DNA of 11,287 nucleotides from a virus (taxonomy: Duplodnaviria > Heunggongvirae > Uroviricota > Caudoviricetes). The notes beneath the pieces are model-generated. The model ran no database searches. It had not been told where the DNA came from and saw only the letters and a list, made by a program, of their open reading frames with translations. This document shows, in pieces, positions 2,576 through 3,382 of the stretch (positions are counted from its first letter, which is position 1; each line of letters begins with the position of its first letter). Made by a program: the position numbers and the translations under genes. The stretch lies in the IMG/VR virus record IMGVR_UViG_2602041669_000010. The stretch is one strand, 5' to 3'.

Positions 2576-3382
2576 ATGGCAAAGCTGGACTGGAAAAAGC
2601 TGGAGCAGGCATTCCGACGCGAACATGCCGAAACGGGAATAACATTACTGGACTGGTGCCGGAAGAAAAAGATTAATTACAACACCGCCAGAACCCGTAT
2701 AAAAATGGGCAAAATCGATCATGAAATTGATCATAAAACCGATCATGAAATCGATCATGACATCTCAGATGAAGAACCCTGCAATGACGCGGGTTCCGGC
2801 GATGAAAAATGCGCAAAAAACTCTGAAAAAAACTGCGCAAATTCGGCAGAAACGAAACGGATTCGTGGTTCCCGACTTTTACCACCTTCAAACGCTTTTT
2901 CTCAGCGAAACACCTACGCCGTAAGACACCGTGGATATGCGAAGTATCTTGAGGCAGATAACCTCATGGATGATGCGTCCGACATGGTGCTGTTTGATGA
3001 ACTGGTGTTCACCCGGGCCCGCGCACTTTCAGTAACTAAGGCACTTAAAGGGATGTTCGCCGACCTGGAAGAGGCAACTGACGTGGAAACCCGTGTTGCT
3101 CTTTACGACAAAATACTCAAAGCTGAACAGGCCCTTGACCGGAATATTGCCCGTATCGAGTCAATTGAACGCTCATTGCTGACGCTGGACGTCCTGGCTG
3201 AGACAGTACCAAAACTTCGTGCTGACCGGGAAAGAATCAACGCCGCCAGAGATAAACTCAGAGCGGAAACCGATATTCTGACCAGCCAGCGTCGGGGCGT
3301 TGTTACGCCTGTCAGTGACATCGTGTCATCGCTGCATGAAATGAGTAATTCGGGGAGACTGGATGACATTCCGGAAGAATGA
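2576..3382 (+). CDS. Putative terminase small subunit (DNA-recognition subunit)
   Basis: 268 aa ORF immediately upstream of and overlapping the large terminase gene by 20 nt. The N-terminal region has a helix-turn-helix-like character and a mid-region coiled coil, typical of TerS. The call rests mainly on position; the RBS is weak. Confidence 0.55.
   Translation: MAKLDWKKLEQAFRREHAETGITLLDWCRKKKINYNTARTRIKMGKIDHEIDHKTDHEIDHDISDEEPCNDAGSGDEKCAKNSEKNCANSAETKRIRGSRLLPPSNAFSQRNTYAVRHRGYAKYLEADNLMDDASDMVLFDELVFTRARALSVTKALKGMFADLEEATDVETRVALYDKILKAEQALDRNIARIESIERSLLTLDVLAETVPKLRADRERINAARDKLRAETDILTSQRRGVVTPVSDIVSSLHEMSNSGRLDDIPEE
2714..2761 (+). repeat. In-frame tandem repeat, 4 x 12 bp (ATCGATCATGAA / ATTGATCATAAA / ACCGATCATGAA / ATCGATCATGAC), encoding IDHE-IDHK-TDHE-IDHD
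   Basis: Read directly from the sequence; units are contiguous and in frame with the 2576 ORF. The first and fourth units contain ATCGAT. Confidence 0.85.

Follow-up and report, generated by a model that had tools for sequence, protein, structure and literature searches.

The pac sites of several headful phages lie within their small-terminase genes, as in gene 3 of P22, in Sf6 and at pacL and pacR of SPP1, and small terminase (TerS) proteins are known for their recognition of pac or cos sites. In phage P1 the pac hexamers are grouped as HEX4 (four) and HEX3 (three), and PacA, PacB, IHF and HU are required. The P1 site, which has been mapped experimentally, comprises seven TGATCA/G hexamers within pacA together with an IHF site, with a central cut and cleavage that is governed by Dam (PMC10028697). 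Here we describe a comparable arrangement in an 11,287-nucleotide stretch of a Caudoviricetes genome (IMG/VR record IMGVR_UViG_2602041669_000010), the whole of which is referred to as the window and which represents the late region of a 933W/Sp5-like Shiga toxin (Stx)-converting phage (Sepvirinae, Traversvirus). Its small-terminase gene, terS, carries four in-frame 12-bp tandem units (2714-2761, plus strand) encoding IDHE, IDHK, TDHE and IDHD, which on balance are probably the TerS-recognition part of a pac site. An earlier note on this DNA had called a link to packaging purely speculative; it is now the best-supported reading of the repeat, the evidence being comparative.

Tandem Repeats Finder delimited the repeat at 2712-2764 (period 12, 4.4 copies, 82% matches, no indels, score 78). 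The units from 2714 to 2761 read, in order, ATCGATCATGAA, ATTGATCATAAA, ACCGATCATGAA and ATCGATCATGAC; units 2, 3 and 4 agree with unit 1 at 10/12, 11/12 and 11/12 positions, and the chance of at least 31/36 matches arising anywhere in 11.3 kb of random sequence is about 2e-10. The repeat is in frame with the open reading frame (ORF) at 2576-3382 and encodes TerS residues 47-62. By extent, frame and chance, the 4 x 12-bp in-frame repeat reported in the earlier note is therefore real, but its description as perfect does not hold: 4 of the 12 positions differ between units, placing the repeat outside the perfect or near-perfect, slippage-prone definition of a variable number tandem repeat (VNTR).

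Every unit holds a YGATCA hexamer that includes the Dam site GATC (at 2717, 2729, 2741 and 2753). These hexamers are CGATCA at 2716-2721 (terS nt 141), TGATCA, identical to the P1 pac hexamer, at 2728-2733 (nt 153), and CGATCA again at 2740-2745 (nt 165) and 2752-2757 (nt 177); the first base of the TGATCA (2728), which is T or C among alleles, is the sole polymorphic site of the repeat. Starting 58 bp beyond the YGATCA array are two TGCGCA, a palindromic hexamer that makes up the entire array in sister alleles; the first lies at 2810-2815 (terS nt 235; codons Cys-Ala) and the second 24 bp later at 2834-2839 (nt 259), and the window holds three TGCGCA in all. The four GATC of the repeat are the only ones between 2493 and 3661 (1.17 kb) and form the only cluster with more than two GATC per 50 bp in the whole 61.7-kb 933W genome. 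As GATC is under-represented across the window (48.8 sites expected versus 35 present, the latter number reached or exceeded in 199 of 200 shuffles), the cluster of four in terS stands out all the more. A lone CGATCA at 2488-2493, 83 bp upstream of the terS start codon and in an AT-rich, near-symmetric context (AAATATCGATCAAATATGG), is the sole other GATC within 700 bp on the upstream side of terS.

An AlphaFold2 model of TerS, built from a 34-sequence alignment, contains an N-terminal three-helix, helix-turn-helix (HTH) domain (residues 6-41; 2591-2698, plus strand) with helices at residues 6-20, 24-31 and 35-41 (predicted local distance difference test (pLDDT) 74-87), a segment of residues 46-112 with pLDDT <50, and a confidently modelled helical domain at residues 113-258 (pLDDT up to 93). 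The model thus combines the N-terminal HTH and helical oligomerisation region expected of a TerS. The repeat begins five residues past the last HTH helix, at the start of the predicted disordered linker (residues 46-112; 2711-2911, plus strand), in agreement with its earlier description as an insert or linker following the N-terminal DNA-binding region, and the linker-coding region holds all six hexamers.

The array shares several properties with P1 pac. Both consist of iterated GATC hexamers about one helical turn apart (CGATCA, TGATCA, CGATCA and CGATCA in 12-bp steps here), and both lie inside the gene for the recognition subunit just past its HTH-coding part, at terS nt 141-182 versus pacA nt 194-233 and 324-352. 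The P1 hexamers, the first of which lies 194 nt into pacA and directly beyond the HTH-coding part, have spacings of 7, 12 and 15, then 12 and 11 bp. They are read in the same frame as those of terS and give x-D-H or x-D-Q peptides: IDH, NDQ, GDH and DDH in pacA, compared with IDH/TDH here and SDQ/NDH in Salmonella. P1 and 933W are also both generalized transducers, each encoding its own Dam. The resemblance of the two recognition subunits is weak but reciprocal: PacA and TerS match each other's PHROG families (E=2.8e-5 and 1.9e-4), and direct comparison by hhalign aligned 42 columns of the HTH only (E=3e-4, probability 39%), with a pairwise BLASTP E of 0.009. In contrast, the 933W-type TerS has 268 aa and an unrelated C-terminal part, versus 397 aa in PacA, and three of the four terS hexamers start with C instead of T.

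Relatives of this TerS were obtained from IMG/VR (72 loci, 53-100% identity) and by a protein search whose 379 homologues extend to Salmonella, Citrobacter, Serratia, Dickeya, Pectobacterium and Aeromonas; DNA was retrieved for eleven of these homologues. In relatives from each of these genera, as well as from Escherichia, a short iterated DNA motif occupies the corresponding position in terS. Most alleles have no IDHE repeat after the HTH-coding part and carry 5-8 TGCGCA instead (terS nt 121-315), written in three frames: cTG CGC Aaa (L/V/M-R-K), nnT GCG CAr (S/N/D/T/G-A-Q) and TGC GCA (C-A). The density of TGCGCA across 34 unique loci was 21.3 per kb in terS nt 121-315 versus 0.21 per kb in the flanks, an enrichment of about 100-fold. 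Because a constraint on the peptide cannot yield one DNA word in three frames, the comparison indicates that selection acts on the DNA itself, and that it is the hexamer, not the peptide, that is conserved.

This arrangement extends to distant relatives and is aligned with that of the window. For example, all 7 TGCGCA of a 6.9-kb locus from a prophage of Aeromonas veronii (TerS 40% identical) fall within 84 nt (terS nt 147-230), and similar arrays occur in A. hydrophila, Serratia and Dickeya, so that the array persists at 40-45% protein identity. The YGATCA hexamers of the window, at nt 141/153/165/177, lie in register with TGCGCA at nt 141/153/167/177 in Citrobacter-type alleles, and mixed arrays, in which TGATCA stands in place of one TGCGCA, were found at two loci (L004 and L047). 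Similarly, a Salmonella lineage with 61% identity (L082 and L086) has TGCGCA at nt 131 followed by 3-5 YGATCA at nt 141 to 189, which encode SDQK, SDHK and NDHE rather than IDHE. These comparisons identify the repeat in the window as a local (933W-lineage) variant of a family-wide motif array. Only among recent duplicates is the hexamer spacing exactly 12 bp; distant relatives show spacings of 7-27 bp, and a strict helical-phasing model, with all sites on one face of the DNA, was dropped for this reason.

The identity of the motif varies with the third helix of the HTH, which in the window reads YNTARTR (residues 35-41) and carries the residues that define the classes. In the ARR[YH] class (22 unique loci), TGCGCA occurs 138 times inside the terS linker region and 23 times outside it, with 3 YGATCA and no TTCGCA, while the ART[RQ] class (19 unique loci from two lineages) has 79 YGATCA inside this region and 34 TGCGCA. 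The AKR[HY] class of Pectobacterium and Dickeya (3 loci) has 11 TTCGCA inside, in two frames, and none in 20 kb of flanks. A fourth class, in which the N-terminal domain is unrelated, is represented by a Salmonella contig (L095) with three TCCGTC at 12-bp steps (terS nt ~140-215), followed by about four copies of the reverse complement GACGGA; this contig holds another 12-bp tandem duplication, GGACGGACGGAT / GGACGGACGAAA. A peptide proxy applied to 120 cluster representatives gave the same clean split of class and motif. Joint variation of a reader helix and a DNA word close by is the hallmark of a protein and the site that it binds.

At the end of the linker, a mosaic patch (2861-2908; terS nt 285-333) consists of alternative modules, IRGSRLLPPSNAFSQ and NSRSGNPHPVARFSD, each of which pairs with either HTH/array class. 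This pattern implies that recombination has occurred inside terS, between the array and the part encoding the C-terminal domain.

We propose that the putative site is an array of short recognition motifs within the stretch of terS that codes for the linker, immediately following the HTH-coding part, in which four YGATCA are followed by two TGCGCA. Several HTH domains of one TerS oligomer, carried on long flexible linkers, would bind adjacent hexamers, and this binding would mark the concatemer for the first cut by TerL, with headful packaging starting towards terL. The GATC within the hexamers may also make binding or cutting dependent on Dam methylation, in the manner of P1 pac; the prerequisites for a P1-like role of Dam, four GATC in the candidate site and a phage dam gene, are both seen, the latter in 933W (PF05869, E=1e-64). 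The IDHE-type peptide would mostly be a consequence of the DNA motif and be tolerated because the linker is disordered, and slippage or unequal recombination could alter the number of sites while function is kept, the gain or loss of units being tolerated if, as we propose, site number is not critical.

What has been reported of the packaging biology of these phages can be accommodated by such a site. 933W is a generalized transducer, and its virion DNA has been interpreted as possibly terminally redundant (PMC3752737), both of which fit a pac-type headful phage. PhageTerm classed a 933W-like phage as 'Mu-like' owing to host DNA at read termini (PMC7946995), a class that would also fit packaging begun in situ.

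A broader and more tentative proposal is that the 5' third of terS could act as a packaging-specificity cassette, made up of an HTH reader and its address within the next 100-200 bp, the address in the ART class being made of Dam sites. The reader would be a third helix of the ARR, ART or AKR type or an unrelated domain, and the address an array of TGCGCA, YGATCA, TTCGCA or TCCGTC. Since reader and address are adjacent, one recombination event would, if this proposal is true, move both and thereby re-address packaging. The Dam sites of the ART class would also place the start of Stx-phage packaging, and generalized transduction in enterohaemorrhagic Escherichia coli (EHEC), under methylation control, as in P1. 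The Shiga toxin genes of EHEC reside on 933W-type phages, which are also able to transduce host DNA, and a candidate of about 125 bp (2716-2839) makes their packaging site directly testable. If confirmed, it would explain which DNA these phages package and provide a handle for building or blocking transducing particles, and the long-isolated 'methylated hexamer' pac of P1 would join a broad family in which a DNA-reading helix and its address co-vary.

Several observations weigh against assigning the array to pac. The homology to PacA is weak (hhalign probability 39%) and, unlike P1, the window has no second GATC cluster, there being no GATC from 2757 to 3661 and the downstream cluster consisting of the two TGCGCA. 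Also unlike P1, the IHF consensus WATCARNNNNTTR was absent from 2248-3560 in a consensus scan allowing up to one mismatch. Many of the loci compared are close relatives, so the counts overstate the independent support. Within the window allele itself the four YGATCA share one frame and arose by tandem duplication, and their identity and 12-bp spacing therefore need no selection; the argument from frame independence comes from the sister alleles. Alleles of 3 to 7 units coexist, which indicates that the exact number is not critical. Nor is the relationship between helix and motif a clean code: PacA of P1 reads TGATCA although it contains TARRY, and one or two TGCGCA persist in the ART class. 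The idea of a one-to-one recognition code was softened on these grounds. End-mapping, binding or deletion data for this phage family were not found in the accessible literature, and neither was a mapped 933W-type pac site or a TGCGCA array in a terminase gene; most subscription journals lay outside that literature, and a prior description is possible.

Among 22 unique alleles, variable sites numbered 1 in the 48 nt of the repeat versus 11 in the 98 nt just downstream, making the repeat the least polymorphic portion of the linker; this fits constraint on the repeat, although it is no proof of it. The low polymorphism bears on the reading of the repeat as a low-complexity protein linker and nothing else, in which a four-codon segment of the disordered tether joining the DNA-binding and oligomerisation domains would have been duplicated by in-frame slippage, with no role of the DNA in cis and a copy number free to drift. 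Such an origin is compatible with the predicted disorder of the segment, with copy numbers of 3-7, with the four hexamers in one frame and their evident derivation by duplication, and with the variability of the linker overall, which is the most variable and mosaic part of terS. However, the repeat is less polymorphic than the remaining linker, and sister alleles retain the hexamer despite a changed frame and peptide. The enrichment of about 100-fold over the flanks, the tracking of the HTH helix by motif type in four classes, and the shared hexamers and register of the 61%-identical Salmonella lineage, whose peptides there differ, likewise make it rather unlikely that the repeat is a protein linker alone.

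The covariation with the HTH helix applies equally to a regulatory binding site for TerS or another protein, being silent on what binding achieves. Such a site could serve autoregulation of terS-terL or a switch, sensed by Dam or SeqA, that times late functions; a cluster of four GATC at 12-bp steps would be a strong sensor of hemimethylation, and the phage has its own Dam. The role known for TerS is nevertheless the recognition of pac or cos, and P1, the closest mapped analogue, uses such hexamers as pac. Moreover, the motif of most family members is TGCGCA or TTCGCA, neither of which is a Dam site, and this excludes methylation sensing as the function of the family at large. A purely regulatory role appears improbable.

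An effect at the RNA level, with self-complementary hexamers pairing in the terS mRNA to tune its translation or stability, would account for the predicted folding of 2690-2860 (-41.5 kcal/mol, z = -3.2), in which adjacent repeat units are paired. We rank this explanation low, and consider it very improbable, because any palindrome array would be expected to fold in this way; in addition, the TTCGCA of Pectobacterium and Dickeya is not palindromic, the irregular spacing in distant relatives would break a common structure, and the covariation with the HTH helix is left unexplained. The Asp/His-rich insert was also suggested in the earlier note to bind metal, which is hardly credible despite the occurrence of D-H four times in 16 residues, as the residues are not conserved (sister alleles have SAQK/NAQK or SDQK/NDHx there, with Gln in place of His in SAQK, NAQK and SDQK), the segment is predicted to be disordered, no Pfam or solved-structure match was found, and copy number ranges from 3 to 7 among E. 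coli genomes and phage records.

With the array regarded as a candidate pac recognition site, the closest remaining comparisons are with other sites embedded in the genes of the proteins that bind them. The headful phages P22, Sf6 and SPP1 likewise have a cis site within terS, adjoining terL, but in P22 this is a single asymmetric pac site of about 22 bp with no hexamer array. In the LF82 phage Gally, pac was mapped by sequencing inside its terS (PMC9928086). Gally was rejected as an experimental proxy for the window, since its TerS has 140 aa and belongs to another family. Lambda-type ori iterons also represent the iterated binding sites of a protein embedded in its own gene, and those annotated in 933W (L090, 13904-14027) lie inside the O gene. 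In lambda O, the iterons fall in the part encoding the interdomain linker. They differ from the terS array in serving replication initiation, not packaging, and in being 18-bp iterons rather than hexamers.

Copy number of the repeat does vary, as the earlier note had anticipated, with 3, 4, 5 and 7 units encountered, and the locus resembles VNTR and contingency loci in having short tandem units whose number differs among isolates. It differs from them in that the units are imperfect, in frame and non-phase-switching, and in that one allele accounts for about 94% of the records from E. coli complete genomes: 4 units occur in 361 of 387 and 3 units in 26, and no longer allele is present. These numbers were obtained with a 3-unit query, for which matches at ≥99% identity (26 records) correspond to 3 units and those at 90-95% (361 records) to 4 units, with none lower. 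Among phage records, 29 of 220 fell in the 93.4% band, and the eight of these listed have a 169-nt match, which corresponds to 3 units, while about 30 further phage records match only as far as the repeat. The 5-unit allele comes from an IMG/VR metagenome contig (L042) and the 7-unit allele from one draft E. coli assembly (P0001/L087), where it reflects a 36-bp duplication of three units. Because the 4-unit allele dominates, the repeat is a poor marker and of little worth for the strain typing that had been suggested for it.

In two records with 3 units, LC727843.1 (L007), which is one of the phage records that match only as far as the repeat, and E. coli 2012C-4227 (L008), an IS3-family element lies directly after the repeat, at locus nt ~1003, equivalent to about 2764 in the window, and cuts terS to 59 codons. 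Its transposase is annotated with a programmed frameshift, and the same break in the BLAST match was seen in about 30 Japanese Stx2a phage records. Judging from the truncated gene, prophages of this kind should be unable to package.

The assignment of the gene itself is well founded. terS (2576-3382, plus strand) encodes 268 aa that match the PHROG small-terminase family over their full length (phrog_370, E=3e-124), lies directly upstream of terL and overlaps it, and is labelled terS in 933W-like Stx phages. No Pfam family was found for TerS or TerL, a PDB sequence profile search with TerS matched nothing, and a Foldseek search of the TerS AlphaFold2 model against the PDB returned non-specific helical matches only (best E=0.46). 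Over 1.1 kb surrounding the repeat, the sequence shares 99-100% identity with more than 200 Stx phage records and some 390 E. coli genomes. The genes of the window follow the order Ant/Rha-like gene, Rz, a small ORF that matches no family other than the PHROG 'Rz-like spanin', terS, terL (large terminase; 3363-5069, plus strand), the start of which overlaps the end of terS, and a P22-like portal gene (5069-7213, plus strand).

Two further tandem repeats were noted in the window. A perfect 13-bp repeat of AACCATAACGGCG (2.5 copies, 687-719) lies inside the ORF at 679-1221, and here the window carries one additional 13-bp copy relative to 933W. The extra copy shifts the frame of the Ant/Rha-like antirepressor gene, such that the frame opened by the upstream ATG at 641 closes after 22 codons, and the ORF begins anew at 679, minus its first ~16 residues. 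A weak 9-bp repeat of GCAGGCACA (2.1 copies, score 31) is located at 10320-10338, within the ORF at 10084-10572.
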